DNA from: a virus
IMG/VR virus record: IMGVR_UViG_3300027749_000066
Span: 33,487 to 97,486 of that record
Strand: one strand, 5' to 3'
DNA length: 64,000 nucleotides
The translations under genes and the position numbers were made by a program. The notes under the pieces were generated by a model that saw nothing but the letters and a program-made list of their open reading frames with translations, ran no database searches and was not told the origin of the DNA. Below, one piece after another: positions 32,760 through 57,799 of the stretch. How positions within the stretch are numbered: the stretch's first letter is position 1; each line of letters begins with the position of its first letter.

Positions 32760-33086
32760 ATAAATGAATGAGAACTATACCCTCGAGCTAATAAAACAAC
32801 ACATTTTGCAAGAAAATGGGGCAGATATATAGGAACACAATTTGAAGCCCTTAGAAACGAAATTAGAGGGCAATGAAAGGACGCTAGAGTAGTGGTCCAC
32901 CCATACCCGCATGAAATGGAATACATTTTAGAAAAGGGTTAACGATATTTGTTTTGAAATACAATTTTGTAATAAACATTAGCATAAAGTAAAGCTATAG
33001 GTTGCGGGCGTGCTATCACACAGTAAGCGATAGCGGCACGCCCGCAGTTTAGCTTTACATTAATCTAAACATTTGAGCGAATAGAT

Positions 33087-33116
33087 AAAAAAAGGGAGGC
33101 CCGAAGGCCTCCCTTT
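33087..33116 (-). terminator. terminator ending leftward unit
   Basis: A7-GGGAGGCC-CGAA-GGCCTCCC. Confidence 0.88.
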
Positions 33117-33134
33117 ATCTCATCCCCATGAGAA

Positions 33135-33692
33135 CTATTCAATATGCATCAAACCTTTGAGAACTACTTGTGCTTCCCCCATCAAAGAATCATGCAACTG
33201 ATAAAGCTTCTCATGATATTCAGAAGAATCATATTCATATTCCTCTGACCATACAGGCCAATCTTCATTCTTTGAATCTTTCTGGAAAAGAATATGGCCA
33301 TTATGATAAATAGCTACACCTGCAAAACACATACCATCTTCTTGCCAGTAATGAAGAAAGAAGAGGGTAGGATAAATCTTTGAGATTTTCTGGTAACCCA
33401 GAATCGGTGGTCCCCACGGTGACTCAAAAGTAAATGTCGAAGAATAATCGTCAATACTTTCGATAGTGAAATCACTTTCAGGCCACTTAGTACCCCAGTT
33501 ATCATAACACCATCCATATCCACCATCATTGAAGCCTTCCATTGTCTTATGATAATCAGACATTGGAACGTAAATCTGAAGGGGAGTTGGTTCTGGTTTA
33601 TCCAAGTCTATTGGAGAAAAGAAATCTTTCCTCGAATAGCCTTCTTCATCTCCACCAAGAACTTCTAAATGATTGTAGCACCAGTTAGGCAT
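33135..33692 (-). CDS. DUF1281/YubB ferredoxin-like protein
   Basis: MPNWCYN...WCYDNWGTKW...FESPWGPP. Confidence 0.8.
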   Translation of the reverse strand: MPNWCYNHLEVLGGDEEGYSRKDFFSPIDLDKPEPTPLQIYVPMSDYHKTMEGFNDGGYGWCYDNWGTKWPESDFTIESIDDYSSTFTFESPWGPPILGYQKISKIYPTLFFLHYWQEDGMCFAGVAIYHNGHILFQKDSKNEDWPVWSEEYEYDSSEYHEKLYQLHDSLMGEAQVVLKGLMHIE

Positions 33693-33737
33693 TATCATGC
33701 ACCTTTCTCATCAAACAAAACGGGAGGGAAACAGTTA

Positions 33738-33956
33738 TCACAACTTCTCCTCCAAATCGATTAGAGTAGGAGCATCGACATTCCAATGCTCATCGAACTG
33801 AACGAACTTATTCCTCAGAATAAACAAACATTCTGTCTGAACTGTTTCCTCCAACTCCCGACGCTTAGAGGCAGGAATAGTGAGGAGGAGTTGACGAAAG
33901 TCATTCTCCAACCTTTCTCTTGCTGCAACTGACAACTTTGCGTATTCCTTACTCAT
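33738..33956 (-). CDS. hypothetical protein
   Basis: Coupled leftward ORF. Confidence 0.6.
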   Translation of the reverse strand: MSKEYAKLSVAARERLENDFRQLLLTIPASKRRELEETVQTECLFILRNKFVQFDEHWNVDAPTLIDLEEKL

Positions 33957-34156
33957 TTCATTTCTCCCATGATTAGTGCGTTGTTGTTGTCGATACGGTT
34001 TTGATCCATGATCATCTGAATCTTTTCACGATTCCTATTGTAAGAATCGTCCTCAGCTTTCATACAGAAAGCTGAGTAAACAAATGCGATAAGAATCAAC
34101 ACAATAACTGCGATGATTCCCTTCACAGTTTCTGTTGCTACCTTTGTTCTGAACAT
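33953..34156 (-). CDS. small membrane protein
   Basis: One TM helix, RBS AAAGGA. Confidence 0.65.
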   Translation of the reverse strand: MFRTKVATETVKGIIAVIVLILIAFVYSAFCMKAEDDSYNRNREKIQMIMDQNRIDNNNALIMGEMK

Positions 34157-34441
34157 AAATCGTTCCTTTTCTTGGGGATGGGACTTGCTGACAGATGTAC
34201 CCTATCATGTTTGACTGGTTGCGACAAATCCAAATCTCTGATGTCTCAAATAGATTTTGTGTCCAAAGAGTTTGTGAAAGCTTTTAGCATTAGATTTTCA
34301 CTAAAGTTTACCTTTATGTTTATTCCAACATTTGCGGGCGTTCTCATCGGCTTTTGCTTCTTGATGAGAACGCCCGCCGCTCGGGAACGCCAAGAAGCCC
34401 CACGGCATCGCCGTGGGGCTTCCTGAGGGGCTTGGGGGCCG

Positions 34442-34723
34442 TTAGCGCTTGCGCTTGGCCTTGCGAACCTCGATCTGCGGAATGCCGTTGGCATCGTAGG
34501 AGATCGACGGCTCATCGGCGCGTGCTGCTCGCCAATGCTTGCGGATCATGGCCGAGACTGCGGGCCGGTCCTCGCTTGCCACCTCACCAATGGTAGATGA
34601 CAGGCGCACGCCTTGCTTGTCCGTCACCTTTGCGAGAGTGGCGAGAAGGTCGGCGTTCCACTCGGTCTTCCGCCCTCGGGGGGACTTGACAAACTCCGAG
34701 GGGGAGATGAACTCATCAGACAT
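34442..34723 (-). CDS. 93-aa basic protein, paralog 1
   Basis: Clearly similar end to end to 35047 and 35701; PRGRK; RBS AGGAG. Confidence 0.85.
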   Translation of the reverse strand: MSDEFISPSEFVKSPRGRKTEWNADLLATLAKVTDKQGVRLSSTIGEVASEDRPAVSAMIRKHWRAARADEPSISYDANGIPQIEVRKAKRKR

Positions 34724-35046
34724 AACTACTCCTAAGTGAATCGGCTAGGGCCAGTCCCTAATCCGATGAGGTAAGTATGCCGGAAGGGTCTAGGATCTAC
34801 AACCAACGGAGCATAAACATCAGGTAAACATCAGGTGAACAGCTTCGCGGTTTGGATTTGGGATCATAGTGTTTATGAAAACGTTTTGCTATACATTTGC
34901 ATTAAAGTTTAGCTAAATGTTTATTCCAACATTTGCGGGCGTTCCTGTGGGGTTTTTGCTTCATCCACAGGAACGCCCGCCGCTCGGGAACGCCAAGAAG
35001 CCCCACGGCATCGCCGTGGGGCTTCCTGAGTGGCTCTAGCGGGCGT

Positions 35047-35328
35047 CTAACGCTTGCGCTTGGCTTTCTTGACTTCCACCTGCGGGATGCCCTCGTTTGA
35101 GAACGAGATCGACGGCTCGTCGTTGCGATCCCGACGCCAGTGCTTCCGGATCGACGCCGACACCGCGGCGCGGTCGTCCTTGTCCACGACGCCGATGCTA
35201 TCCCGAAGGACGACGCCCTGCTTGTCGGACACCTTCGCGAGAGTCGCGATCAGTGTCTCGTTCCATTCCGTCTTTCGGCCTCGGGCCGACTTGACGAAAC
35301 TTGCGGGGGAGACGAATTCGTCTGCCAT
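35047..35328 (-). CDS. 93-aa basic protein, paralog 2
   Basis: Paralog; RBS AAGGAG. Confidence 0.85.
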   Translation of the reverse strand: MADEFVSPASFVKSARGRKTEWNETLIATLAKVSDKQGVVLRDSIGVVDKDDRAAVSASIRKHWRRDRNDEPSISFSNEGIPQVEVKKAKRKR

Positions 35329-35700
35329 GATTGTTGCTCCTTGCGCTTGGGCTAGGGCCAGTCCCTAACCACAAGACGTACCTTAGTCTATGGGGTGAGT
35401 CAGAACCTAATCGAAAGGCTCTATGGCGATGGTCATATGTCACACCGTTATGGCTTGCGTCAGCCTGGCCGATGTGCTAGGCGACTTTCGGCCCTAGCAC
35501 AGCCGAAGCTCGAGTGCAAATCGGATTCGGGCGCATACTCAACTATGCATGATTATGCAATCACCTGCGACGGGCGTTCGTCGTCTGAGGAACGAAGACA
35601 CGACGAACGCCCGCAGGCTGACTGGCAGCCTGCGGGCGTCGGTTGTGGGGGGTGCTACTGCCCTCCCCCGAGGCGGGGCGGGGGAGGGCAGACCTTGGGG

Positions 35701-35982
35701 CTAGCGCTTGCCCTTGGTCTTTCTGACTTCCACCTGCGGGATGCCGTCGGCGCTGTAACTGATCGACGGTTCGTCGGTGCGATCACGGCGCCAGTGCTTC
35801 CGGATCATGGCGGAGGTTGCGGGACGCTCGTCCTGTGCGACGGCGCCAACGCTGTCTCGGAGGACGACACCCTTGGCGGGGGTCACCTTGGCGAGCGTGG
35901 CGATGAGTGTTTCGTTCCACTCAGTCTTGCGCCCTCGGGGTGAGCGAGCGAACTCACTCGGGGAGATGAACTCATCTGACAT
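35701..35982 (-). CDS. 93-aa basic protein, paralog 3
   Basis: Paralog; RBS GAAAGG. Confidence 0.85.
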   Translation of the reverse strand: MSDEFISPSEFARSPRGRKTEWNETLIATLAKVTPAKGVVLRDSVGAVAQDERPATSAMIRKHWRRDRTDEPSISYSADGIPQVEVRKTKGKR

Positions 35983-36285
35983 GGGGACTGCCTTTCACGT
36001 TTGCGGTTGAGCCACTCCCAACCGCTGAAGGTACCGTATCATAGGTGAGTTAGGGGATGCCACTCAGAATGGGGTTAGAACCAAGATTTCTCAGTGTGAC
36101 ATCTGACCATCAGAAATGACTTGCGCTGTACCCTCGAGCTATGGTAGGGCCATTTCGGTTCCTAGCACACATTCCACCCAAGACGCAAATCAGATCACCT
36201 GCGGCGGTCGTTCCTCTACGGTAGTGCGTGTAGAGGAACGACCGCAAAGCGCAAAGCCCCAGCCTTTCGGCTGGGGCTTTTCTTG

Positions 36286-36720
36286 TCAGGGCCGCTGTCC
36301 GGTTTCCTCTTCTATTCGCTTGAGAGTTTCGGGGAAGTAGGGTCCATCTCGCAAGATTTGATTCAGTTCATCATGATATCCTCGGAGGTAGAAGCTGAAG
36401 AGGTCATGATAGAGTTCTGAGATTTCATCGTAGTCGAAACCGTAGACGATGAGATCCAACATTTGCTCGTTGGTGATTTCTCTAAGGCTGAGATACTTGC
36501 GCCAGTTGCGAGGGTAGGCGACGATGGGAATGTTCTTGTCGTCAAAAGTGACTAGCACCGGCTGATTGTGTTCTAGTTCCCAATGCGCGGTGATCATGTC
36601 TCGCACAGCTGTTCGATTGGTCCATTCCACTGGTCCTACGGTACTGACTAGGCGTGCTGATTGGTGAAAGCTCACGCCGCGTAGTGTTTCTAGTAGTTGT
36701 TGGCTGTAGTTGGTTTCCAT
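36286..36720 (-). CDS. divergent 4th paralog with C-terminal extension, leaderless
   Basis: N-half aligns with 93-aa family (LL.TL..V....RL.ST.G.V....R.AV..MI..HW); TTGACA..TAGGGT 7 nt before ATG. Confidence 0.75.
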   Translation of the reverse strand: METNYSQQLLETLRGVSFHQSARLVSTVGPVEWTNRTAVRDMITAHWELEHNQPVLVTFDDKNIPIVAYPRNWRKYLSLREITNEQMLDLIVYGFDYDEISELYHDLFSFYLRGYHDELNQILRDGPYFPETLKRIEEETGQRP

Positions 36721-36944
36721 AGGGTGAACCCTAGACGATGGATCGGTGCCGTGTCAACTCCAAATGCACACTAAATCTCACTAGAGAAGATATCTATATT
36801 TGGCGGCCGTGCATCCGAGGAACGAGGATGGCACGCACGGCCGCCTGTGGATAACTCTGTGGATAACTGTTTCTCCGACAACGCAGAAGCGCCCTCGGGA
36901 AACTCCCGAGGGCGCTTTGCCGGTACCTCACCTCCCTTGTGAGA

Positions 36945-37448
36945 TCAGTCCATGTAGCCGTTGTTGACGAACCACAGGCGAGCGCCGTACACGCTTTCGG
37001 GGACCGTGGCGTCCTCTTGGCGGTAGAGGTCTTCCAGCGTGTCGAACTGTTCGGCCAGTTCGATTCCGGCATTCTCTCGCCCTTGGCGTTCGATCAGTTC
37101 CTGTTCGTTGGAATCGAAACCACCAGCGGAAGGGTTGGACCACAGTGAAAGAATGTCTAGCGGCATGGAAGTCGATCCGCCGTGGGGGTGATGAATGGTG
37201 AAGTCGATCAGTCGCGTTGTTATCGAAGTGTGGAATGTTGTTGTGATGGTTGTGAACCCATTCCCATACGACTGGACGAACTGAATGAACTCTGTGCATG
37301 ATCCGTTGTCGTGCATCGTGATCGTGCTCACGGGTGCGTCAACCCTGTAGCCCATGCGCATCATGCGCCAGCACAGGGTTCGGGGGATTGGGGAGAGCGA
37401 CGCAATCTGCGCCACGGAAAGATTCGTCTCCATCAGAATATCGGACAT
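36945..37448 (-). CDS. hypothetical cassette protein
   Basis: RBS GGAGG; followed by hairpin 36886-36919. Confidence 0.65.
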   Translation of the reverse strand: MSDILMETNLSVAQIASLSPIPRTLCWRMMRMGYRVDAPVSTITMHDNGSCTEFIQFVQSYGNGFTTITTTFHTSITTRLIDFTIHHPHGGSTSMPLDILSLWSNPSAGGFDSNEQELIERQGRENAGIELAEQFDTLEDLYRQEDATVPESVYGARLWFVNNGYMD

Positions 37449-37687
37449 GACAACCTCCAGTCGTACCGGCACCCGTTGTGCCGATGGCAAACGATACCAT
37501 AGTTCCAACAGTGCGTGTAGTGTTTTCCCACGTATTCCAGGTATTGTTTACCTAATGTTCATGTTCGGCGGGCGCACTCTTCCGCAGGAAAAGATAGCGG
37601 GGCGCCCGCGCCGCGAAAAAGTTATCCACAGGTTTGTCCACAGGCTGGGTGCTGCTGGCCCCCGCCCGAAGGCGGGGGCCGAGTGGA

Positions 37688-38110
37688 TCATTCGTAATAG
37701 CTGTTGTCATCATCGTGATCCGGCCCGCAGTTGCCACGGATGATGCGAACGCTGAAATAGCCTTCCGGCTCTTGGGTGAGCGTGGGGAACACGCGAGGGT
37801 TGCCATCTTCGAATCGTTCGATCCATTCGAACGCCTTGTCCAGACTCGGAACCTGACGAGAGGCGACACGCTTGCGCGTGGTGAACCACCAACCACCCTC
37901 CTCGGGTCCGCCGTACTCAGAGCAGACATCGTACACTGAGATCCACCACACGCCGTCACCGGCCGAGTCGCGGTCGATCTCGCCGGATGTCGCGCAGTAG
38001 GCGCCGTGATCAGTCATCATCTGCGCGTACTCCGGCCCGCGATCGGGAGTCCAGATTTCGGCAATCTGGCCGCAGATGTTGCAAGTGGCGGGGGAAGTGA
38101 CTTCGGACAT
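37688..38110 (-). CDS. hypothetical cassette protein
   Basis: YGGPEEGGWW motif; RBS GGAGG; stop in hairpin A. Confidence 0.75.
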   Translation of the reverse strand: MSEVTSPATCNICGQIAEIWTPDRGPEYAQMMTDHGAYCATSGEIDRDSAGDGVWWISVYDVCSEYGGPEEGGWWFTTRKRVASRQVPSLDKAFEWIERFEDGNPRVFPTLTQEPEGYFSVRIIRGNCGPDHDDDNSYYE

Positions 38111-38353
38111 GGGAACCTCCGGTTCGTGCGTGACACCATGCCACGCACAAGGAATGGTAGTCGATTCAAGTTGTCAGTGCAAGTGTTTCCCATAGTGTTT
38201 CGATATGCACCAGGAATACACTCAAGAATGAATATTTATGCAACAATATTTGGCGGCCGTGCATTCTGAGGAACGAAGAATGCACGCACGGCCGCCTGTG
38301 GATAAACCTGTGGAAAACTGCTGGCCCCCGCCCGAAGGCGGGGGCCGAGTGGA

Positions 38354-38593
38354 TCAGAGATCTCGCTCAAGCGCCCAGAGGACGCCTTCGAGCCACATTT
38401 CGGCTCGAATGAGATCGTCGAACTCCTCGTAGTCTGCGGACTCGTAGCGGACTCCATCGTGCTTGAAGATGCGCACGACCCATGAGTCTGATCGCCAATT
38501 CTGATCGTGGACGATGGTTCCGAAGAACTCTCCATCGTCGGTGGATGTGCCTTGGGTGGGGGTGGGTACCCACTGTGTGGTGTATTTCTTCAC
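38354..38593 (-). CDS. hypothetical cassette protein, leaderless
   Basis: Stop in hairpin A; TTGCGC..GAGACT 6 nt before GTG. Confidence 0.7.
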   Translation of the reverse strand: MKKYTTQWVPTPTQGTSTDDGEFFGTIVHDQNWRSDSWVVRIFKHDGVRYESADYEEFDDLIRAEMWLEGVLWALERDL

Positions 38594-38792
38594 GACGAAA
38601 GTCTCCCACAGTTGGGGATTCGGCGCAAGTCAATCGGGAAGATTTGCGTGCTACCACGCACATTCTATTTCTCTGGAGAAGATATCTATATTTGGCGGCC
38701 GTGCATCCGAGGAACGAGGATGGCACGCACGGCCGCCGTCCACAGCCTGTGGAAAACTGCTGGCCCCCGCCCGAAGGCGGGGGCCGAGTGGA

Positions 38793-39176
38793 TCAGGCTA
38801 GATCGAAGAACCTGATGACATCCGAGTATGTCGGTTCGTCGATCTTGGTGGTTCGGCCATCGGTCCCCTTGATGGCAGCGTTGAGGATTTCCACTCCGGA
38901 GAATCCATCTTGTTCGGTGGCGTAGATTCCGATGTGCGCTCGCTCTACGCCACGGACCATCCACAGTGATGCAACGGTGCGAACCTCATCACTGTAGCGG
39001 ATCGAAGCTTCGGCCTCGTTACCGAAGACTGGCTTGGTGATACCGTTCGGGCCGGTCCATCCGTTGCGAAGCATCAGAGTGAAAAATCCGATGAGGTAGC
39101 GGGCGGATACCGGCTGGCTGATGTTGGTGTTGCGGGCTGGAGTGTCTACCAGCTTTTTGGTGTGGGTGGTTCCCAT
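38793..39176 (-). CDS. hypothetical cassette protein, leaderless
   Basis: TTGACA..TAAACT 7 nt before ATG; stop in hairpin A. Confidence 0.7.
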   Translation of the reverse strand: MGTTHTKKLVDTPARNTNISQPVSARYLIGFFTLMLRNGWTGPNGITKPVFGNEAEASIRYSDEVRTVASLWMVRGVERAHIGIYATEQDGFSGVEILNAAIKGTDGRTTKIDEPTYSDVIRFFDLA

Positions 39177-39390
39177 GAGGAGCAGTTTAGGGATGGCGAC
39201 AGTTGTTGTCAAGTGTTTTGCGTGCTACCACGCACATTCAAAGTTGTCTAGAAATGTTCTCTAGTTCGGCGGGCGCACTGATCCGTCGAAAAGCAAACGG
39301 AGCGCCCGCGCCGGGCAAAGGTTATCCACAGGCTGTGGATAACTCTGTGGAAAACTGCTGGCCCCCGCCCGAAGGCGGGGGCCGAGTGGG

Positions 39391-39729
39391 TCACTCTACT
39401 GTGATTCCGAAACCATCTTCGCGACGACTGTGGGTCTTGACTTCGATGAGGAGATCATCTTCGAAGTATGGAACGGGTGAGACGCATTCGTCTTCATCGC
39501 ACCATGTTCGCGTCTCATGATCGTAACAGTCATGCTCCATGCCAACAGTTGGGCGGGTGATAAAAATTGTTGCGATGAGGATTCCCCCAAGGAAGATCTC
39601 AACTCCTGCAGAGTCGTTCCACGTTACTGCGTTGAATGCTGTCACTTTCGGCATGATGCCGTTCAGCATGAGTTCGGATGGGGTTGCCGGAGTTTCCGGC
39701 TGGGATGAGGTACCGCTTGTGTTGTTCAC
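39391..39729 (-). CDS. hypothetical cassette protein, leaderless
   Basis: TACCAT 6 nt before GTG; stop in hairpin A. Confidence 0.7.
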   Translation of the reverse strand: MNNTSGTSSQPETPATPSELMLNGIMPKVTAFNAVTWNDSAGVEIFLGGILIATIFITRPTVGMEHDCYDHETRTWCDEDECVSPVPYFEDDLLIEVKTHSRREDGFGITVE

Positions 39730-40049
39730 GTTGTCATGGTACAGGAGCCAAGTGAACGCACAATGGTTTTTGGGTAAACAGAAGATGAATCTTTTTGTTC
39801 ACTTTCTGTTCATCGTTTCTTTATGTAGATGAACATTGGGTGAACTTTTTTGTTCATGTTCTGTTAGCTCAATGTTCACCATATATTCATCTTTTGTTCA
39901 TCTTCCGTTCATGTTCGGCGGGCGCATTCTCCCATCAGAAAAGACAATGGGGCGCCCGCCGCCCGGTTTTCCACAGGTTTGTCCACAGGCTGTGGATTGT
40001 TGTGGTGCCTGTGGACAACTCCGCTGGGGAGTTGTCCACAGGCTGGGGA

Positions 40050-40475
40050 TCAGACTGCCGAAATCCAGTGGCGGATGTCGATGATTGTTTCCGTGAGAGT
40101 GTCAGTCTCATCAAGGAACGATACAGTTCCGTCTGTGTAGACCCTTGCTTGTGTGCAACGGTCATCGACGCTGGAATCGTCGGTTCGGAAGACTGACATT
40201 ATCGCAACGCCGTTGTCCTCTATGACGGTCACAGAATGAATGAATCCGCCAACATTGGTGACATGTGTTGCAATGTGACGAACCGACTCACTGATGCCCA
40301 TACGAAGCAGAGCATCATAGGTGCGAACGGCGTTCATGCTAGATGCGCCGCTACAGTCAGACATATGGCCAAGAAACAGAACCCATGCGGGGACGGAGCC
40401 AAGGCGTGCGACTGCTGCCGTGGCGGGGACTGCCAGAACCTCTGGCGGGGTGAGGTACTTCTGTGTGTTGTTCAC
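40050..40475 (-). CDS. hypothetical cassette protein, leaderless (family with 40879, 43524)
   Basis: MNN...VPAWVLFLG; TAGGGT 6 nt before GTG. Confidence 0.7.
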   Translation of the reverse strand: MNNTQKYLTPPEVLAVPATAAVARLGSVPAWVLFLGHMSDCSGASSMNAVRTYDALLRMGISESVRHIATHVTNVGGFIHSVTVIEDNGVAIMSVFRTDDSSVDDRCTQARVYTDGTVSFLDETDTLTETIIDIRHWISAV

Positions 40476-40878
40476 AGAATCACCCTAGTGCCGATTGCGT
40501 CCGGATTGCAAGCCAGAAGGCCGATTTTCACCAGGTTTTTGTGGTCATATGTCACACTGTTTGGACTTGACAATGGTTGGTGAGATGAGCTAGACTCTCA
40601 AATCCCACAAGATTGGTGGGGTTTGCATTCCCCACAAAGTTGGTGGGAATGAGCTAGCACATCAAAGTGAACTTTGAATGAATGGAAGGTAAACAGAAGA
40701 TGAATTCTTTTGTTCATCATATGTTCATCTTTTGTTCATCTTCCGTTCATGTTCGGCGGGCGCATTCTCCCATTGGAAAAGAATATGGGGCGCCCGTCGT
40801 CGGGCAATGTTTTCCACAGGCTTGTCCACAGGCTGTTGGGAACTGCTGGCCCCCACCCGAAGGTGGGGGCCGAGTGGA

Positions 40879-41289
40879 TCACTCTCCGGTGATGTACTTC
40901 CGGATGATTCGGAGAGCCGAGAGGAGCGTATCGTCGTGCTCGTTCCAGTAGTCCAGCGTTCTACTCATCCAGATCCCATCGGGATGGATGGTCATCTCGG
41001 CATGGTTGTATCCGTGGCCGATGTCGATTGTCACGTTGCCACCATGCACCCATGTGGACTGAATGCGGCCACCGAGTGAATCGACAGTGTGGGCGATCTT
41101 GATGATCGAACACCCAAAGTGATTCGCGCTTGTGGGTGCGATTGTGTTCAGCGCAACGAGAGCCGTCTGGAGAGTTGTTCCAGAGAAGTTATCCACGGTG
41201 ATTTCACCGAGGAGCATGGCCCAAGTTGGGACGGTGGATGGGACTGACAGAGCCTCTGTCGGGGTGAGGTGCTGCTGTGCGTTGTTCAC
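40879..41289 (-). CDS. hypothetical cassette protein, leaderless
   Basis: MNN...VPTWAMLLG; TACCCT 6 nt before GTG; stop in hairpin A. Confidence 0.72.
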   Translation of the reverse strand: MNNAQQHLTPTEALSVPSTVPTWAMLLGEITVDNFSGTTLQTALVALNTIAPTSANHFGCSIIKIAHTVDSLGGRIQSTWVHGGNVTIDIGHGYNHAEMTIHPDGIWMSRTLDYWNEHDDTLLSALRIIRKYITGE

Positions 41290-41593
41290 GTTGTCAGGGT
41301 ACCAGCTCCAAGTGAACGCAAGGTGAACGGACGGTGGAATCGGGGTGAATGTTGAAGATTCACCTGCTGTTCACCTTCCCTTTATGTGAATGAATTTTGA
41401 ATGAACAGAAGATGAACAAAAGGTGAAATGTTTTATTCACCATGTGTTAACCTAAAGTTCACCGAATGTTCATGTTGGGCGGGTGCATTCTTCCGCAGAA
41501 AAAGAAAGCGGAGCACCCGCCGCCGACTTTTCCACAGGTTTGTCCACAGGCTGGGTGCTGCTGGCCCCCGCCCGAAGGCGGGGGCCGAGTGGA

Positions 41594-42214
41594 TCAGGCT
41601 CCGATGCTCATCATCTTCCGGAAGATTGCGAGGGTGATCTCGGCGTCAACCTCGGCACGATGGCTGAACGGAACGTGAATCCCGAACCGCTCGGCAGTGG
41701 CCTTCAGGTTGTGACGACCCTCGGTGAACATGAGTCGGGACATTCCGAGAGTGCAGAACGTGCCAACCTTGGGAGCCTTGACTCCGGCTCGGTGCAATTC
41801 CACCACGATGAACGAATGATCGAACGATGCGTTGTGCGCCACGAATGTTGCGTTCCGCATCATCTCCCGAACCTTGGGGGCGATGTCTGCGAACGTCGGA
41901 GCGTGCATCACCATCGCATCAGTGATGCCGTGAATCTCGGTGGCACCAGTGTCGCGGTTCGGGTTCACCAGTGACACGAACCGACGAACCTCGCGACCCT
42001 TGGCGTCGATGCGGATCATTGCGATTTCGATGATCCGTTCCGAATGGGCATCCAAGCCAGTGGTCTCAACATCGACAACCACGCGATCGCCCGAGCGCAG
42101 AAGATCGCGAACGATGTTGTAGGTGCAATGGGCGAGAGTGAGAAACGCTCCCACGATGCATGATGCGATGACGAACCCGACAGGCTCGGAGACTGCGGAG
42201 TAGACAGTGTTCAT
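41594..42214 (-). CDS. DEDDh 3'-5' exonuclease (DnaQ-like) with N-terminal hydrophobic helix
   Basis: DVETTG, HGIT, VAHNASFD, HRAEVDA; RBS AAGGAG; stop in hairpin A. Confidence 0.9.
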   Translation of the reverse strand: MNTVYSAVSEPVGFVIASCIVGAFLTLAHCTYNIVRDLLRSGDRVVVDVETTGLDAHSERIIEIAMIRIDAKGREVRRFVSLVNPNRDTGATEIHGITDAMVMHAPTFADIAPKVREMMRNATFVAHNASFDHSFIVVELHRAGVKAPKVGTFCTLGMSRLMFTEGRHNLKATAERFGIHVPFSHRAEVDAEITLAIFRKMMSIGA

Positions 42215-42384
42215 GATTTCTCCTTGCTAGGTGCCGGTGGACTCTCCCCCGACAAAGACAAGTATTGCAGGCCCAAGTGAACATAGGATTGTGGGAAGGT
42301 GAACAGAAGGTGAATTCATTTGTTCATCAAAAATTCATCTGTTTTTTATGAAGATGAATTCTTGGTGAATTTTGAGCTAAATTT

Positions 42385-42759
42385 TTGTCCACAGGGTTAT
42401 CCACAGGCGGCGGCCGTGCATCCGAGGAACGAGGATGGCACGCACGGCCGCCATCCACAGGTTTTTCCACAGGCTGTGGATAACTTTCGGTTGTCCACAG
42501 GTTTTTCCACAGGCGGGGAGAAGTTGTCCACAGGTGAGGGGAGTTCTCCACAGGGTTGTCCACAGGTTGCCTGTGGATGAGGGTGTGGAAAACTGTTGTC
42601 CACATGGTTGTCCACAGAGGCTGAGTGGTTGTCCACAGTTTCCACAGGTTTGTCCACAGGTTTGTCCACAGGCGCAGATCCTGGAGGCAGTGGTTGTCCA
42701 CAGGGCTGGGGAAAACCCTGTGGACAACGAGCCTGGGCCTGTGGAGTGAGTTTTCCACA
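42385..42759. repeat. oriC-like cluster of >20 DnaA boxes
   Basis: TTGTCCACA/TTATCCACA/TTTTCCACA and reverse, many at 12-bp spacing, next to AT-rich 42300-42385. Confidence 0.88.
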
Positions 42760-43020: not shown

Positions 43021-43077
43021 TGTGTTCTCTTTCGTGTGTTCTGGTTGGTGTTGGGTTGGGATGGAAGGACAGCGTGG

Positions 43078-43526
43078 GTCCGGCACCGGAGTGCCGGACC
43101 CTGCCGGTCAGATCGACACTCGGCCAGTGTCTCGGGCGAGGTAGACAACCGGAATCAGATCATGGTGTGGGGACACCATCGTGTAGTAGTTTCCGTTGGT
43201 GTGGCCGTGGATGCCCCGACCGTTCTGATCGATGAATCCCGGAGCGCACACTGCCGATGAGAACGTGTAGCCGAGAGTGTTGAGGATGGTGATGGTGGTA
43301 TCAATCCGATCGGAGTGATGCATCATCGGGACGCTGTAATCCGCCTCGGTGAGTAGAGCCTCTACGACTGAGGCGATGGTCTCGGCCGAGAGTCGGATGG
43401 TGGTGGTGGTGGTGTTCGGGTTGGTGTTCATTGTGTATTCCTATCTGTTCTAGTTGGTTGGTTTGTTGGTGTGGAAGGACTACCGGAGCGGGTCCGGCAC
43501 CGGAGTGCCGGACCCTGCCGGTATCA
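43078..43526. repeat. hairpin-C pair GGTCCGGCAC-CGGA-GTGCCGGACC
   Basis: 43077-43110 and 43491-43526, each abutting an ORF stop; partial third copy at 44011. Confidence 0.75.
43108..43431 (-). CDS. hypothetical protein
   Basis: RBS AGGA; poly-Thr N-terminus. Confidence 0.65.
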   Translation of the reverse strand: MNTNPNTTTTTIRLSAETIASVVEALLTEADYSVPMMHHSDRIDTTITILNTLGYTFSSAVCAPGFIDQNGRGIHGHTNGNYYTMVSPHHDLIPVVYLARDTGRVSI

Positions 43527-44763: not shown

Positions 44764-45378
44764 TTACTTTTTGTTGGCTTGGTGGATTGCTTTGGCGAAT
44801 CCGTTGGGTGTGACCGATCTTTTTTCGGCTCTGTCGGCGCTTGGTGGTAGGTTGTTGAGTTTGTTTTTGTTGGTTGGTTGTACATATTTTGTTTCTGGCA
44901 TGATGAAGCCGTTTCCGGTCCATAGGCAGGTGCGTTTGTAGTAGGCTTCTTCTTCTGGGTTGTCTAGGTAGCCTGCGTAGTCTGTTGGTTGGAAGATGTA
45001 GTCGGGTTTTCTCCAGTATGTTGAGATGGTTGATACTGGGTTTTCGATCATGTATGGTGCGTCGGACCATTCTGCGATTTTTACGCAGGCTTCTACGACT
45101 TGGAGGGCTTCGACTAGACCTGTGAGGCCTTTGTCGTGGAAGTATCGGGCGCCGGAGACTGCGACGTTTGTGCAGGGTGGAAATCCGAATACTATTTCGT
45201 ATTCTGTTCTTGGTGGAAGCCATTTGGTGATGTCAGCACCGATTGTGGTGAGATTTCCGGTTTTTTTGGTTCCTTTGGGGTGTTGTGTGTCTACGATCAT
45301 GCATTCGTAGCCTGCTTCCAGCCACGGTTGGACGATGTTCCCTGTTTTGTCACAAAGTGATAGTACTAGTTTTGTCAT
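44764..45378 (-). CDS. C5 cytosine DNA methyltransferase (short phage type)
   Basis: VLSLCD.TG, FPPCT, IENPV, YYKRTCLW, RSVTPNGFA. Confidence 0.85.
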   Translation of the reverse strand: MTKLVLSLCDKTGNIVQPWLEAGYECMIVDTQHPKGTKKTGNLTTIGADITKWLPPRTEYEIVFGFPPCTNVAVSGARYFHDKGLTGLVEALQVVEACVKIAEWSDAPYMIENPVSTISTYWRKPDYIFQPTDYAGYLDNPEEEAYYKRTCLWTGNGFIMPETKYVQPTNKNKLNNLPPSADRAEKRSVTPNGFAKAIHQANKK

Positions 45379-45407
45379 TTGTCAAGTTTATCATGTTTTG
45401 TATGGCA

Positions 45408-45433
45408 GAAAAGACCCCTTCGGGGGTCTTTTC
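45408..45433. terminator. bidirectional terminator
   Basis: GAAAAGACCCC-TTCG-GGGGTCTTTTC. Confidence 0.85.
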
Positions 45434-45475
45434 TTGTGCTGCTTAGGGTTTATCGCCCTCCGATTGATTATTTTA

Positions 45476-45694
45476 TCATAGAACGGGGTGATTGTCAGGG
45501 ATTTGTTTGTCATTAAATACGATTTCATGACCGTAGAGGCGAATTACTGGGACGCACGGGTCATCTCCATTATCCCACATTTCTATTTCTTTGTCACTCA
45601 TCGGTATTCCGTCGTGTGTGTCACATACCGGGTTTGAAATCCACCCTTTTGCGACACCGTATGTTAACCATTCGTTGTATTTTTCCCAACTCAT
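45476..45694 (-). CDS. hypothetical protein
   Basis: GW.S.PVC.THDG...GDDPC pattern. Confidence 0.7.
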   Translation of the reverse strand: MSWEKYNEWLTYGVAKGWISNPVCDTHDGIPMSDKEIEMWDNGDDPCVPVIRLYGHEIVFNDKQIPDNHPVL

Positions 45695-45915
45695 CTTTGA
45701 ACCTCTTCAATATTGGAGAATAATTGTTCTTCTGTTAGCTTTGATGATATTGATAAGATCTTTGGTGTTACTGGAGAAGTTGTTTTAACTTCGTGTGGTC
45801 CTATTGCACCACAAAACCAGCATTTTTGGGGGTTAAACTTATCAATACTCCAAGCACAACCACATTCACATAGGAAAGCTTTAACATATTTTGTAGAAGA
45901 ATCCATTGACTTCAT
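45691..45915 (-). CDS. zinc-ribbon protein
   Basis: CECG..CWFC. Confidence 0.55.
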   Translation of the reverse strand: MKSMDSSTKYVKAFLCECGCAWSIDKFNPQKCWFCGAIGPHEVKTTSPVTPKILSISSKLTEEQLFSNIEEVQR

Positions 45916-45936
45916 GATATCACAAAAAACGGGATA

Positions 45937-46245
45937 TTAGGATTTCTTCAGCTTATTATTCTTTAAATATAGATGAACCTTATATAGAACTAGATAGCCT
46001 ATAAGGTCGTCTATAACATCTTCATCTTCGTCTTCTTGTTGGTTTAGTACCCTTGATAGTTTATCGTCTATGCGAACTTTGAGTGCATCTCCTGTATCAC
46101 CTTTGTGGAAGATACTTACTGGTTCAAGGGCGGAGTTGCCGTATTTCCTATTTTTTGTGATAAGTAGTTCTTTGATTTCATCACATTTTTTTGCTATAAG
46201 TGTGGGTACGTCCATGTGTTCTCCTGTGCTCTGAGAGGTCATTAT
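45937..46245 (-). CDS. Nmad1/DUF1599-like all-alpha NTP-pyrophosphatase
   Basis: KNRKYGNSA, RIDDKLSR, DLIGYL. Confidence 0.8.
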   Translation of the reverse strand: MMTSQSTGEHMDVPTLIAKKCDEIKELLITKNRKYGNSALEPVSIFHKGDTGDALKVRIDDKLSRVLNQQEDEDEDVIDDLIGYLVLYKVHLYLKNNKLKKS

Positions 46246-46387
46246 ATTGCCTTCTAAGAGGTTTGAAATACGTTTTAAGGTATTCTTGCTGCTCTTCAAG
46301 TTTATCAAGGTTTATTGAGGTTTTTGGGGTTTGTTGGTTACTAGATACTAATCTGGCGACCGGACCGAGATTACATTATAACAACGA

Positions 46388-46681
46388 TTATCTAATTTTT
46401 TTCTTATCAAAATAGATTCGTTGCATCTCAAGTTGAGCATATGATTCATTAGATGAATAGTATACCTTGGCATATGCTTCTCTTGCTACATCATCAAAAG
46501 CATCGCATCGGGGATTCTGACAGATGTACAATGCTTTGTAATTCTCGGGTTGAGCTGTAACATGGATTGCATCAACAAGATCGCACTTCTTATTACAGTA
46601 GGTGCAGAACTTTTCGGGATATGGAAAGTTTGCTATCCTCTTACCTATAAGTTTTCCTCTGAAATATTCAGATAAGATCAT
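46388..46681 (-). CDS. zinc-binding hypothetical protein
   Basis: CTYC..CQNPRC. Confidence 0.65.
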   Translation of the reverse strand: MILSEYFRGKLIGKRIANFPYPEKFCTYCNKKCDLVDAIHVTAQPENYKALYICQNPRCDAFDDVAREAYAKVYYSSNESYAQLEMQRIYFDKKKIR

Positions 46682-46977
46682 TTATCAATTATATCAGATG
46701 AAGACATTGTTGGATGTGACTTTTCATGTTCTACTTGCCAAATTTGAACATTATCAAGTCTTTCATCAAGGCGATCAACTTTTGAATCTATCCCACCAAC
46801 TTGATTGCTGAGATGATTAAGCAATGTTTGATTTTGTTCGTTAATTTCTTTACCTTCTAGATGTTGTGCTGTATTTTCTTTGCGAAACCTTTGAACAAAA
46901 ACTGCTCCAAGTGTTGTAATAAAAGCTACTGAAATTGGTACAATGACAATCTGTGCAACATCTAAGAATGAACTCAT
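46678..46977 (-). CDS. membrane protein with coiled coil (DUF2746-like)
   Basis: N-terminal TM, KVDRLDERLD; RBS AGGAG. Confidence 0.65.
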   Translation of the reverse strand: MSSFLDVAQIVIVPISVAFITTLGAVFVQRFRKENTAQHLEGKEINEQNQTLLNHLSNQVGGIDSKVDRLDERLDNVQIWQVEHEKSHPTMSSSDIIDK

Positions 46978-47258
46978 TGTAAATAATTACTCCTAATATT
47001 TATGCATTCATTAGGAATGCTATTCAATAAGTTTAGCAAATTTCATTTTATGAAGCCACCTATGGAGCCTCTTGTATAATGCAAGTTCAAGAAAAGTTGC
47101 GTGATATGCGCGAGTTCCTGAAATCTTGTGGTATAGTCAATATTGACAACAGAAAAACCTGCTGTGATCACAATAAAGGGTACATTGATTAGGATTTCAT
47201 TAGCTTAATGCTAGAAATCCTCTTTGGCAACCCTTGATACAAAAGTGTTTTTTATTTT

Positions 47259-47312
47259 CCTTTAAAGCCTTTAAAGCCTTTAAAGCCTTTAAAGCCTTTA
47301 AAGCCTTTAAAA
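47259..47312. repeat. 9-bp tandem repeat (CCTTTAAAG)x6
   Basis: Five perfect units plus one variant in a divergent AT-rich intergenic region. Confidence 0.92.
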
Positions 47313-47539
47313 CTTTTTATTAAAAAATACACTGAATAAAGTAATTACTAATAATCTATTATTAAATTCTTTATCTTTCAGCTTTTAAAAACATTGGTAA
47401 CAAGGCTTGTAGCCTTAAAGCGCACATGGGGTGCGTCTTTTTGTTGTTTCAAAGTTCTTGGTGGAACCGGTTGCGATCCGTGATATGATGCTTGGATTCC
47501 CCTTGGAAGGCTTGGGGCGAACAGGCATAGGAGCCACCG

Positions 47540-47929
47540 TTGAACGATTACTTTAAATTTCTCATGTTTGAACTTCCTTCTATCACTGAAGAATTTGATA
47601 CTGATTCAGAACGTGTACATGAGATCTGCGTACTTCTTGCTGTAGATGGGAAAGATATTCCAGAGACTTTCTATCGTCTCTATGTCACCCCCATTGGTGT
47701 TGATCAAACTTTGATGAATAATGCGATGTCGTATTTTACGGGCGCAGGATTTCTTAATATCAAGTGTGATTGTGAAATTGATTCACAAAATTACTGTGAA
47801 CTTGCTTTGACTGATGATAATATCTTTTATGATATGGGCCAGCAGGATCGTGAGAACATGAGTGAGAATTATGTTAGAATCTATAAGGAGATCAAGACCC
47901 TTCATATGGAGTTGAGTGAATGCTGGTAA
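47540..47929 (+). CDS. hypothetical protein
   Basis: RBS AGGAG, TTG start. Confidence 0.65.
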   Translation: MNDYFKFLMFELPSITEEFDTDSERVHEICVLLAVDGKDIPETFYRLYVTPIGVDQTLMNNAMSYFTGAGFLNIKCDCEIDSQNYCELALTDDNIFYDMGQQDRENMSENYVRIYKEIKTLHMELSECW

Positions 47930-48441
47930 AATATCCAAATCCACTTCTCAATGAGAGATCTGTCGCAGCGTTTGGTAATCTTACTAATGATGAGATTTCA
48001 AAGATCATCAGTTTGATGAGATCTGAATGCTGGAAGGTTGGTGGATTTGCTATTTCAGCAATTCAAGTTGGAGATCCTTACACAATTCTTGGATATTTTT
48101 CTTTTAAAAAGAAAGAGTATCAATGGATTATTGATCCAGAAATTATTGATACTAGTGGTAGTAGTTCTCTGAATGAAGGATGTCTTTCAATTCCCGGATA
48201 CTTTTGGAATATTATAAGACCATCAAAAGTTACAATTTCATATAAAGATATTAACGGAATAGATAGAGTGAGAACTTTTACAGGTGTAATTGCTCGAGCT
48301 ATTCTTCATGAAATGGATCATTTTGATGGAATTCTTATTCCAGATTTTATGTCCGATGATGAAGCAAAAACTTTTAATAGTCATTATACACAAAATAGCC
48401 ACATTGAAGAATATGTAGCTCCAAGTCTTAACGCTATTTGA
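47920..48441 (+). CDS. def: peptide deformylase
   Basis: EGCLS, HEMDHFDG, motif-1 variant GGFAISAIQVG. Confidence 0.9.
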   Translation: MLVKYPNPLLNERSVAAFGNLTNDEISKIISLMRSECWKVGGFAISAIQVGDPYTILGYFSFKKKEYQWIIDPEIIDTSGSSSLNEGCLSIPGYFWNIIRPSKVTISYKDINGIDRVRTFTGVIARAILHEMDHFDGILIPDFMSDDEAKTFNSHYTQNSHIEEYVAPSLNAI

Positions 48442-48447
48442 TGGTTT

Positions 48448-48520
48448 GGACGTTTAACTCAGTTGGTAGAGTATCTCTTTTACAAAGAGAAGGTCAGGGG
48501 TTCAATTCCCTTAACGTCCA
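48448..48520 (+). tRNA. tRNA-Val(TAC)
   Basis: Cloverleaf GGACGTT/AACGTCC, loop TTTACAA, GGTTCAATTCC. Confidence 0.9.
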
Positions 48521-48522
48521 CT

Positions 48523-48720
48523 ATGAATAATATAGAAAAAGAATATACATTTTTACTTACTGAGATGGAAGCAGCTTATCTTAATGCTGCAGTAGTAGAT
48601 TTTTTTCATAAGATGAAAAATGCTGCTGAGGAAAAAACAGTTGTACTATTTAGAGATGATAGATATCGTATTGCCAAAGATCTTTGGATGAAAATAGAAA
48701 AACAAATCCCTTTGCTGTAA
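48523..48720 (+). CDS. hypothetical protein
   Basis: ORF after tRNA. Confidence 0.55.
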   Translation: MNNIEKEYTFLLTEMEAAYLNAAVVDFFHKMKNAAEEKTVVLFRDDRYRIAKDLWMKIEKQIPLL

Positions 48721-48734
48721 TGATATAATAGAGT

Positions 48735-49082
48735 ATGATATATCGTGAATACATTACGTCTGATGAGTGGAAGAAGCGTAGAGAAAACTACTTTGAGACT
48801 CATCTGCGACGATGTAGAGCTTGTGGCTCAGCGAAAAGGATTCATCTTCATCATAAAACTTACAGACGGCTAGGACAAGAGCGGGATGCAGATTTGGTTC
48901 CGCTTTGTCATTTGTGCCACTCAGCTTTACATCGTAGGCAGAGGCAGAGTGGCCAGAATCTCTGGATTGCCACTGAGGCATTCATTCGCAATAAAGAAAA
49001 AATGCGTAGTAAAAAAAAGAAAAAAAAGAAGCAAGTTGTGAAAAGAAAATCCCGACTTCACAAAAAAGAAACAAGATCATGA
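48735..49082 (+). CDS. HNH endonuclease
   Basis: CRACG..LHHKTY..LCHLCH. Confidence 0.85.
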   Translation: MIYREYITSDEWKKRRENYFETHLRRCRACGSAKRIHLHHKTYRRLGQERDADLVPLCHLCHSALHRRQRQSGQNLWIATEAFIRNKEKMRSKKKKKKKQVVKRKSRLHKKETRS

Positions 49083-49105
49083 TATAATCATGGCCAGAGG
49101 TAAAA

Positions 49106-49909
49106 ATGATCTATGCAAAAATAATAGCTGATAGTGTAAATGTGACTGGTGATAGACTTACTACAATGGAAGTTCAGTTTCACCGATTTATACTTCCTGA
49201 GTTTAATACTCACCGAGTTTTTTCTCGTAACTCTGCATCATCAAGAGCTATCCCAATTTCTAGGCAAATAGAAAAAATTTCAAAAAATCCTGCCTTCCCA
49301 GTTTTCTGGGGAGTCAATAAGCCCGGTATGCAAGCAGAAGAAGAGTTAGCATTCTGCGATTCAGTCAAAGCAAGCAAGACTTGGCTTAAGGCCTCCAAGA
49401 GTGCAGTGAAGCACGCAAAGAAACTTGAGAAGCTTGGAGTTCATAAGCAGACTACTAATAGACTTCTTGAGCCTTTTATGTGGCATAAGGTTATTGTCAG
49501 TTCAACTGAGTGGGATAGTTTTTTTGAGCAAAGATGCAGTCCACTTGCTCAACCTGAAATTCGTGAAGTCGCAGATTTAATGAAGACTGCCTATGAATCA
49601 AGTACTCCTGTTCTTTTGATTAAAGGAGAGTATCATTTGCCATATTTAACTTTCAAAGATTTAAATTTTAGTAGACAAGATAGAATCAAAATGTGTGTAG
49701 CTAGATGTGCAAGAGTATCTTATGATAATCATGATGGCTCTTTTAATCAACTCAAAGATCTACAATTATTTGACAGATTGGCAAACGCAGAACCTCCTCA
49801 CTGGAGCCCTATGGAGCATATTGCTACACCTTCTACAAAAAAATTAAATAATTCTGGAAATTTTATAGGATTTTCTCAAGTTAGGCATAACTTAGATCTG
49901 GTATTATAA
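49106..49909 (+). CDS. thyX: FAD-dependent thymidylate synthase
   Basis: EFNTHRVFSRNSASSRAIP, AQPEI, ARCARVSY, HWSPMEH. Confidence 0.9.
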   Translation: MIYAKIIADSVNVTGDRLTTMEVQFHRFILPEFNTHRVFSRNSASSRAIPISRQIEKISKNPAFPVFWGVNKPGMQAEEELAFCDSVKASKTWLKASKSAVKHAKKLEKLGVHKQTTNRLLEPFMWHKVIVSSTEWDSFFEQRCSPLAQPEIREVADLMKTAYESSTPVLLIKGEYHLPYLTFKDLNFSRQDRIKMCVARCARVSYDNHDGSFNQLKDLQLFDRLANAEPPHWSPMEHIATPSTKKLNNSGNFIGFSQVRHNLDLVL

Positions 49910-49913
49910 TACT

Positions 49914-50078
49914 ATGAGATTTAAGAGTATTTTATGTGAAAATAAAAATCATTATGAATGTCTAGAATATACTTGTGAATGTCCATGTCACCATCCAAAT
50001 TATTGCGATTGTTTTGCTTGTAGAGTAAAGACAATTGGATTTGGCCAAGTTCCGGGTGGATATAAATCAACGAACTAG
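49914..50078 (+). CDS. Cys-rich small protein (54 aa)
   Basis: CECPCH..CDCFAC open frame. Confidence 0.5.
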   Translation: MRFKSILCENKNHYECLEYTCECPCHHPNYCDCFACRVKTIGFGQVPGGYKSTN

Positions 50079-50137
50079 CTTAGTTGTAAAAACTTTTTAT
50101 CCATGATAAAATTACTGTATATACTTAGGAGATAATT

Positions 50138-51208: not shown

Positions 51209-51214
51209 AATAAG

Positions 51215-51895
51215 ATGGCTAGAGTTAGCGTTCTCCTCACTGTCTATAATAAACCTCAATGGTTAAATCAGTGCATTGACTCTGTAATTGACCAGACATA
51301 TGATAATTGGGAACTTATAATTCTTGATGACAATTCTCCTGATCCAATGGTTCAGGAGATTTTGTCTTCTTACAAAGATGAGAGAATTAAAATATATACA
51401 TCTAATGTTTCTGAGCAGGATAGATACAAAACGGCTAGATACGCTACTTTAATAAATCTGGGTGTCTATGAGATAGCAACTGGCGACTATATAACCTATC
51501 TTACTGATGATGACTTCTATTATCCAGATCGACTTGAGTCGATGGTTAAAAGATTGGAAGACGAAAGTATCAACATAGTTTATGGAAGTCAAAGATCAAT
51601 TCAACCTGATGGAACTACTATTGAAGTAAGAGACACTCAGGGCATATTAGATATTGCGTATAATATAGTTGATCATAATTCAGTTATGCACAGAACACAA
51701 TTGTTCTACGATGTTGGTGGGTGGCCGGATAGTCCAGAATATTGGGCGGGAGCCGATGCGTACTTCTGGAATAGAATAACTGACGCCGGACACAAGTTCT
51801 ATCCAGTAGAAGGTGGACCTTATGAAGCTAAGAGATATCATGGTGACAGTGTTCAGTATCTAGTTCATAATGGGAGGTTCTTTCCAAGTGAATGA
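51215..51895 (+). CDS. glycosyltransferase family 2
   Basis: VSVLLTVYN, LDDNS, YLTDDD. Confidence 0.88.
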   Translation: MARVSVLLTVYNKPQWLNQCIDSVIDQTYDNWELIILDDNSPDPMVQEILSSYKDERIKIYTSNVSEQDRYKTARYATLINLGVYEIATGDYITYLTDDDFYYPDRLESMVKRLEDESINIVYGSQRSIQPDGTTIEVRDTQGILDIAYNIVDHNSVMHRTQLFYDVGGWPDSPEYWAGADAYFWNRITDAGHKFYPVEGGPYEAKRYHGDSVQYLVHNGRFFPSE

Positions 51896-54544: not shown

Positions 54545-54580
54545 AAAATATAGTATAATGATTTTGAACATTGGACGCTT

Positions 54581-55276: not shown

Positions 55277-55286
55277 CGGAGATCTT

Positions 55287-56551: not shown

Positions 56552-56552
56552 G

Positions 56553-56581
56553 TTGCGAACCTGCTGAAGCCGTGGTACGAT
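56553..56581 (+). promoter_or_regulatory. promoter for tRNA-Ile
   Basis: TTGCGA-17-TACGAT with TG extension. Confidence 0.6.
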
Positions 56582-56592
56582 GCTGGGAGCAA

Positions 56593-56665: not shown

Positions 56666-56704
56666 CTAGATGCTATGTCGTTAGATACTATGTGAGGAGA
56701 TAAT

Positions 56705-57513: not shown

Positions 57514-57519
57514 CAGTTA

Positions 57520-57783: not shown

Positions 57784-57799
57784 GTGATATAATTTAATT

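Follow-up and report, generated by a model that had tools for sequence, protein, structure and literature searches.

Covarying palindromic hairpins between the single-gene cassettes of a GC-rich island in a freshwater phage

Introduction

The turnover of accessory genes in phage genomes is concentrated in a few hyperplastic regions, and the features of the sequence that govern it have been worked out in detail only for T4-like phages. In such regions, T4-like phages carry promoter-early stem-loops (PeSLs), mobile regulatory cassettes that border the ORFans and bring about their shuffling (Arbiol et al. 2010, PMC2839356; Comeau et al. 2014, PMC4122927). Indels arise via exchange between the repeats, and the stem-loop itself is a terminator (PMC2839356, PMC4122927). 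Here we report on a family of hairpins that separates the single-gene units of a GC-rich island in a freshwater phage. The analysed stretch of 64,000 nt, referred to as the window, comprises bases 33,487-97,486 of a 97,486-nt IMG/VR phage record (IMGVR_UViG_3300027749_000066) with a completeness rating of 94%. Hairpin positions are given as plus-strand starts in window numbering.

The island resembles the PeSL regions in that repeated composite intergenic modules of a stem-loop and promoter-like sequences flank ORFans in a hyperplastic region, and in that related phages keep the modules and differ in the genes between them. There are clear differences as well. The phage of the window appears to be a distant relative of the Stanwilliamsviridae and is not a T4-like myovirus, and its linkers, at 150-400 nt, exceed those of the PeSLs in length and contain box arrays in addition. 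Whereas the PeSL stem-loop is the terminator, here a separate terminator comes first and the hairpin lacks terminator features, and its foot is conserved and covaries across lineages. We consider it possible, if short of probable, that the hairpins are homologous palindromic boundary elements acting at the DNA level, which form the core of repeated linkers and serve as sites of flank re-assortment and cassette exchange, in analogy to the PeSLs. Unrelated uncultured freshwater actinophages would then show a PeSL-like logic plus an additional, structure-constrained element that is not a terminator. The hairpins provide a testable handle on the exchange of ORFan cassettes, on the insulation of neighbouring early units and on the persistence of a host-like GC-rich island in an AT-rich phage.

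Results and Discussion

The hairpin family

A scan for perfect 8-bp clamps and direct reading of the sequence recovered 14 hairpins of 42-46 nt (Table 1). An earlier note on the window had proposed the same number, and all of them are present where it had placed them, with exactly the clamps and inner stems that it had quoted. The covariance model built from the copies (R1) detects precisely these 14 in the whole 97,486-nt genome and no family copy beyond 33.0-42.5 kb. The perfect 8-bp clamp GCNGNNGN is found in 12 copies, whereas 200 simulations of the island under a first-order Markov model contain none. Fold z-scores against dinucleotide shuffles range from -2.8 to -8.5. A chance origin of the hairpins is excluded.

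Three subtypes can be distinguished. Type I (five copies) has a GCGGGCGTTC-like clamp and perfect stems of 14-17 bp without a bulge. The clamp GGCGGCCGTGC characterizes type II (four copies, three of them identical), which carries a bulge of 4-5 nt on the 3' side and a GAGGAACGA loop. In type III (five copies), the clamp GGCGGGCGC is combined with a GAAAAG loop, and the bulge of 4-5 nt is located on the 5' side. Loop length across the family is 8-14 nt. The bulge and purine-rich loop that had been ascribed to most copies are present in nine of the 14 (types II and III). Successive hairpins are spaced by 1330, 601, 635, 634, 598, 765, 685, 442, 574, 649, 838, 723 and 931 nt. The range from 34334 onwards (442-931 nt) agrees with the previous description, but its apparent regularity merely reflects gene length: the spacing equals the length of the cassette and is not a periodic signal.

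Table 1. Coordinates of the hairpins and further features of the island in window numbering
Feature	Start	End	Strand	Remarks
Family hairpin, type I	33004	33047		in low-GC DNA at the left edge; 43 nt behind canonical terminator 33091-33116
Family hairpin, type I	34334	34377		15-bp perfect stem; behind 93-aa gene 34442-34723 and its terminator 34394-34422
Family hairpin, type I	34935	34980		16-bp perfect stem; CCACAGG box within the stem
Family hairpin, type I	35570	35614		GAGGAACGA loop; 3' arm has alternative partner 35632-35647 (three-arm site)
Family hairpin, type I variant	36204	36245		clamp GCGGTCGTTC, change compensated in both arms
Family hairpin, type II	36802	36845		sequence identical to the 38694 and 42409 copies
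Family hairpin, type III	37567	37610		
Family hairpin, type II variant	38252	38296		inner stem ATTCT/AGAAT
Family hairpin, type II	38694	38737		
Family hairpin, type III	39268	39310		
Family hairpin, type III	39917	39960		flanks shared with 40755 (left) and 41478 (right)
Family hairpin, type III	40755	40798		one G-T pair in the clamp
Family hairpin, type III variant	41478	41521		clamp GGCGGGTGC, change compensated in both arms
Family hairpin, type II	42409	42452		within the large TCCACAGG box cluster
GC-rich island of single-gene units	34300	44250	minus	nearly all ORFans
93-aa paralog	34442	34723	minus	basic, invariant RGR motif
93-aa paralog	35047	35328	minus	basic, invariant RGR motif
93-aa paralog	35701	35982	minus	basic, invariant RGR motif
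Gene with diverged fourth RGR-family copy	36286	36720		copy forms the N-terminal part
RGR-family region	34442	36720		family also in L274 6192-8277
Cassette terminator hairpin	37657	37680	minus	10-bp GC stem, UUCG loop; stop TGA in shared flank; six copies in total (others at 38323, 38762, 39360, 40848, 41563)
Cluster of 18 TCCACAGG boxes	42453	42774		DnaA-box-like

One member of the family is part of a three-arm site (35570-35647), in which the 3' arm can pair with either flanking 5'-arm copy. The same layout occurs in L046 (10901-10967); it is kept in both phages, behind a 93-aa paralog, and is reminiscent of an attenuator or of a slipped cruciform. We rejected a mini-ORF that would begin in the type II loop because it is not conserved in other copies or in the related phages G001 and G003 (see below), and CRISPR-repeat mimicry is ruled out by stem length and spacing.

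Covariation of the stems

Clamp-pattern scans of IMG/VR returned almost exclusively single GC-rich repeats that match by chance, and the true relatives amount to four records (G001-G004). The same hairpin family is present in three other freshwater phage lineages. Covariation was assessed on a set of 34 distinct hairpin copies from four phage records. The 10-bp foot has the consensus GCNGNYGYNC with invariant C2, G4 and G7 (pairs C2-G, G4-C and G7-C), and the clamp positions 3, 5, 6, 8 and 9 covary. Position 3 is occupied by GC in 25, CG in five, UA in three and AU in one copy; position 5 by GC (29), CG (3) and UA (1) with one mismatch; position 6 by CG (22), UA (11) and UG (1); position 8 by UA (24) and CG (10); and position 9 by UA (16), GC (11) and AU (2), plus the bulged type III copies. 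Only eight of 272 cells over clamp positions 1-8 deviate from Watson-Crick pairing, and six of these concern the terminal pair. Changes on both sides affect 12 of the 16 stem positions (116 cells), and the covariation score of 0.481 lies far above that of shuffles (0.175 +/- 0.018) and of alignments with slid partners (<=0.124). The proposal of structure over sequence, in that pairing is kept while the sequence changes, is hence supported in a larger set of copies than the one from which it was made.

Further evidence comes from individual copies. In four single-copy variants (36204, 41478, G003 6546 and G004 15105) the change in one arm is matched by a change in the other, the inner stems are wholly different among copies and still perfectly paired, and two copies of G001 have the same top on different feet, each of which is self-complementary. 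The compensated variants and the divergent yet paired inner stems document that pairing is maintained.

These observations bear on the idea that the hairpins are duplex-DNA palindromic operators of a dimeric regulator, or signals that act during the entry of the DNA, comparable to the injection-stop region of phage T5. In favour of this idea, operator-like boxes surround the hairpins in dense arrays, the lineage-specific box CTAACGTTAG of G003 is located inside both hairpin arms as well as beside them, and the island lies where the cultured relative Wakanda has its genome end and terminal repeat. The early-region inverted-repeat operators of Streptomyces phage phiC31 and the T5 injection-stop region with its DnaA boxes are presumably comparable cases, with many inverted repeats next to promoters and terminators in an early or terminal ORFan region. 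The repeats of phiC31 and T5 are thought to act as duplex protein-binding sites, whereas the variable but paired inner stems of the present family demand intrastrand pairing. Half-site recognition by a dimeric protein cannot account for the observed pairing: it fails to explain the four compensated variants and leaves the wholly different but perfectly paired inner stems unexplained. An operator or entry function of this kind is highly improbable.

The G-T pairs of the 37567 and 40755 copies, from which a folding preference of the plus strand had been deduced, do exist, but the preference itself is not supported. Wobble pairs in the clamps of the 34 copies are scarce (about three per strand), the two strands hardly differ in mean fold energy (-26.74 and -26.76 kcal/mol), and folding is more stable on one strand in 15 copies and on the other in 13. 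The covariation is almost purely Watson-Crick and strand-symmetric, and wobble intermediates are nearly absent even where positions switch between G-C and A-U. Such a near-absence is unusual among RNA families. The scarcity would fit a constraint on both strands or an arm-to-arm templated correction.

An unrecognised small-RNA family had been among the candidates of the earlier note. Its members would be transcribed from the plus strand, antisense to the cassettes, and would have the hairpin at their 5' end. Purine-rich loops and two G-T pairs on the plus strand as well as -10-like hexamers (TATATT, CATAAT) just left of some copies speak for this reading. However, the 34 copies show no strand bias, and the hexamers would start transcription within the 5' arm. 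The plus-strand promoter scan detected nine sites compared with 8.8 expected, none of them consistent, which weakens the idea further. There is no downstream plus-strand terminator, and the best Rfam matches are far below the gathering threshold and do not fall on the hairpins as a family. The proposed small-RNA family is not supported, and we give it barely any credence.

Linkers and terminators

The island has a G+C content of about 55% compared with about 36% in the backbone and is the sole such stretch in the genome. All genes between about 32.7 and 47.9 kb are located on the minus strand. Along the direction of the genes, the order of the linker elements is stop codon, terminator hairpin, zero to few boxes, family hairpin, AT-rich stretch and next gene. 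In all 14 copies, 40-99 nt separate the family hairpin from the stop codon upstream of it (322 nt in the case of the large box cluster), and the next start follows after 77-279 nt. Each copy is preceded by a separate hairpin of the terminator type, whose tetraloop on the gene strand is UUCG, UCCG or GAAA, and in six units the stop codon is a TGA inside the repeat that is shared with the terminator. Putative promoters, predicted from sequence as -35/-10-like elements, are present in at least four units at a distance of about 7 nt from the start codon, so that these units look leaderless; other units of the island carry a Shine-Dalgarno sequence.

The position downstream of genes and the stable GC-rich stem-loops (-20 to -35 kcal/mol) are shared with intrinsic terminators. 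The hairpins could accordingly back up the terminators or stabilise the 3' ends of the cassette transcripts, in the manner of the "I-shaped" terminators of actinobacteria, which have no U-tail; the similarity among the copies would then result from duplication only. Stems with the same clamp also occur singly in many bacterial genomes among the matches listed; these matches are mostly due to chance, stem from many phyla and include no arrays, and they give no clue to the host. On the other hand, the terminator scan calls no whole family hairpin, a U-tract is missing on either strand, and the large loops and the bulges are atypical of terminators. The family hairpin is always the second one behind a true terminator, which in G003 is canonical, with a full U-tail and about 25 nt away from each hairpin, and likewise has a full U-tail in G004. 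Moreover, at least six unrelated sequences serve as terminators, in contrast to the family hairpin with its constant foot. By these features the family hairpin is not the terminator, and a match to a plain terminator family, which would have spoken against the earlier note, was not found. A backup or stabilising role is decidedly unlikely.

Exchange at the linkers

The linkers of the island are mosaic, and the flanks on the two sides of the hairpin re-assort independently of each other. On its left, the hairpin at 39917 has 44 nt of flank in common with the 40755 copy, and on its right 32 nt with the 41478 copy. The three identical hairpins (36802, 38694 and 42409) sit in different flanks, and the first two of them diverge exactly at the hairpin end. 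Other parts of the linkers are mosaic too. Several contigs of an approximately 90% identical strain cease to align near hairpins, with three breaks no more than 10 nt away from a hairpin end (39970, 40801 and a joint at 41520). A contig from a second lake sample (run X3) lacks the cassette 43108-43431, and its joint falls into 33 nt that are common to two identical terminators, which constitutes a natural cassette deletion polymorphism. The two terminators are identical 26-nt hairpins that flank this cassette (43076-43515).

The comparison with related phages extends this picture. The backbone of G001 (29 kb) is syntenic with that of the window at 50-80% amino-acid identity, and a GC-rich island is located at the same place. 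It contains seven family hairpins, the same boxes and repeats, and 93-aa paralogs at its far end, whereas its inner cassettes have no protein similarity to those of the window. The linkers are thus kept while the genes between them are unrelated. The record of G003 (91 kb, 87% complete) begins with an island of 8.5 kb with about 50% G+C in a 35% backbone, which harbors 13 hairpins of 39-46 nt at a spacing of roughly 500-870 nt. G002 and G004 (24-34% complete) carry three copies in the same layout.

If the hairpins are boundary elements, they would fold at the DNA level, either in single-stranded intermediates of replication and recombination or as a cruciform. The element would separate neighbouring transcription units, with the terminator on one side and the promoter on the other, and it would supply a short conserved homology or a pause site for strand exchange or template switching, which may result in the swap of a cassette. 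This logic would be the same as that of the mobile regulatory cassettes of T4-like phages, and the mosaic flanks and the terminator-terminator deletion fit an exchange between copies as described for PeSLs.

Several points weigh against this interpretation. Homologous exchange was directly seen at a terminator repeat only, and no mapped junction lies inside a family hairpin. The breakpoints of the strain near the hairpins may only reflect the fast divergence of the hairpin interior at an alignment threshold of 85%. Extrusion of a cruciform from duplex DNA is disfavoured by the bulges and the 9-11-nt loops of types II and III. A role in homology or insulation alone would not require a specific binding partner, yet one is suggested by the conserved loops and the invariant foot. 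Finally, the perfect pairing could be kept by quasi-palindrome correction during replication, without selection.

The clustering of homology breaks at the hairpin base also speaks for attC-like sites, at which a recombinase yet to be named would insert and excise cassettes in a structure-specific manner. The likeness to integron attC sites is considerable: structure-conserved hairpins with a conserved base and variable tops separate single-gene cassettes of one direction, and types II and III have asymmetric bulges. In contrast to integrons, neither an IntI or other site-specific recombinase nor R/L core sites are present. The 94%-complete genome has no match to the tyrosine recombinase family PF00589, which was matched in all control genomes, and family searches of the genome found no serine recombinase, RecT or endonuclease VII. 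The cores GTTRRRY/RYYYAAC are absent from 13 of the 14 copies on both strands, and the single match is located outside the stem. attC cassettes are promoterless and depend on a common promoter, whereas all cassettes of the island have their own terminators and at least four have promoter-like sequences. The extrahelical bases of attC lie on one strand; here the 4-5-nt bulges lie on opposite sides in types II and III, type I and the G003 copies have none, and many copies are perfect palindromes without strand asymmetry. The mosaicism in other parts of the linkers is what general homologous exchange predicts. Membership in the attC group, as considered previously, is not borne out, and attC-like recombination is very unlikely.

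The same holds true for the suggested relationship to REP elements. Like REP/BIME sequences with their RAYTs and the subterminal hairpins of IS200/IS605, the family consists of short GC-rich intergenic palindromes in many copies downstream of genes. However, the genome has no match to the Y1 (HUH) transposase family of the RAYTs (PF01797), and the copies are confined to 9.5 kb of a phage instead of being dispersed over a chromosome.

A conserved protein family in the hairpin islands

The 93-aa paralogs belong to a family of proteins of about 90 aa with invariant RGR, IR and PQV motifs and three to four paralogs per island. The phage of the window (G000) has four copies and G001 has three, and G003 contains three distant copies. 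All of them lie within the hairpin-bearing island. Altogether, 18 protein relatives were found; the IMG/VR search with the family returned G001 alone, and the contigs of the JGI metagenomes gave no match. The 93-aa protein has no Pfam, PHROG or fold match. Its structure model (pLDDT 67.5) has no Foldseek match at E <= 0.001, the best VIA-align Z score of 5.3 is within noise, and profile searches of the PDB and the ESM Atlas led to unnamed viral clusters only.

The RGR-motif family is a candidate binding partner of the hairpins. The hairpins, as RNA or single-stranded DNA, might be bound by a dedicated protein, such as one of the RGR-motif paralogs from the end of the island, with a regulatory function in processing, antitermination, priming or the control of silencing. 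The invariant C2, G4 and G7 agree with this view, and so do two loop motifs that are kept across lineages, GAGGAACGA under four clamps in G000, G001 and G003 and GGAAAAG in G000 and G001. The RGR family moreover stays in the hairpin islands while other cassettes turn over, and at least three hairpin subtypes exist per genome. Yet the protein lacks a recognisable family or fold, no homolog was detected in the partial records of G002 and G004, which do have hairpins, and the loops of type I and of the G003 copies are not conserved. We regard a dedicated regulatory protein as rather unlikely. It is conceivable, though on balance unlikely, that the hairpins and the RGR-motif proteins together represent a previously unknown structure-specific system that builds and polices arrays of self-expressed cassettes in phages. 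Such a system would be integron-like without an integrase, and the hairpin with its fixed 3-bp foot would be the site of exchange or insulation. A dedicated protein that binds or cuts the hairpins, should there be one, would constitute a new tool-like system of DNA-hairpin recognition.

The phage and its genome end

The sequence of the window stretch is present in freshwater metagenomes, and megablast and blastn searches with island and backbone gave no match among cultured phages. The best matches of its DnaE polymerase are from Streptomyces phages of the Stanwilliamsviridae with 39% identity. Judged by such sequence comparisons, the host of the island is an AT-rich freshwater actinophage with a distant relationship to this family. 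The order of the genes for a methylase, tRNAs, a glycosyltransferase and a ribonucleotide reductase is shared between the window (44764-62259) and the left end of Streptomyces phage Wakanda, of which the regions 1-9000 and 124800-126614 were compared. The first four genes of Wakanda are repeated at its right end, giving a terminal repeat of about 1.7 kb. Because the genes to the right of the island are arranged as at the left end of Wakanda, the island occupies the place of the genome end and terminal repeat of that phage. The covariance model R1 has no match in Wakanda. The read depth of the island is about twice that of its flanks in run X10 and flat in X3, and it was not taken as evidence of a terminal repeat.

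Boxes, repeats and codon usage of the island

All 33 TCCACAGG boxes of the 97-kb genome are located within 33.0-44.3 kb, and one to five of them lie between terminator and hairpin in nine linkers. They occur in the forms TTATCCACA, TTGTCCACA and TTTTCCACA, many of them 12 bp apart or as head-to-head palindromes. The different box CTAACGTTAG at the same positions in G003 suggests a lineage-specific regulator rather than the DnaA of the host. Runs of GTTCAT/GTTCAC (GTTCAY) with an 11-bp phase are located between hairpin and next promoter (39750-39916, 40690-40754, 41310-41477 and 42290-42375) and resemble the direct-repeat sites of OmpR/PhoP-type regulators. A GGTCATATGTCACAC motif and a CTAGCACA motif are found upstream of several cassettes (35432, 40545 and 44108; also in L046). 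Both motifs are present in both phages, and in G004 the hairpin top also contains the segment with CTAGCACA in inverted orientation.

The sole island gene with a family match encodes an RNase T/DnaQ-type 3'-5' exonuclease (41594-42214; PF00929, E = 1e-33), and Pfam searches with ten further neighbouring small proteins yielded nothing useful. The GC3 value of the island genes is 0.69 compared with 0.285 in backbone genes. The island genes almost never use the codons TTA, ATA, AAA, AGA and GTA, which correspond to the five tRNAs of the phage (48448-58742). The island looks tuned to a high-GC host without the phage tRNAs, as would be expected of early genes or of a steady import of host-like genes.

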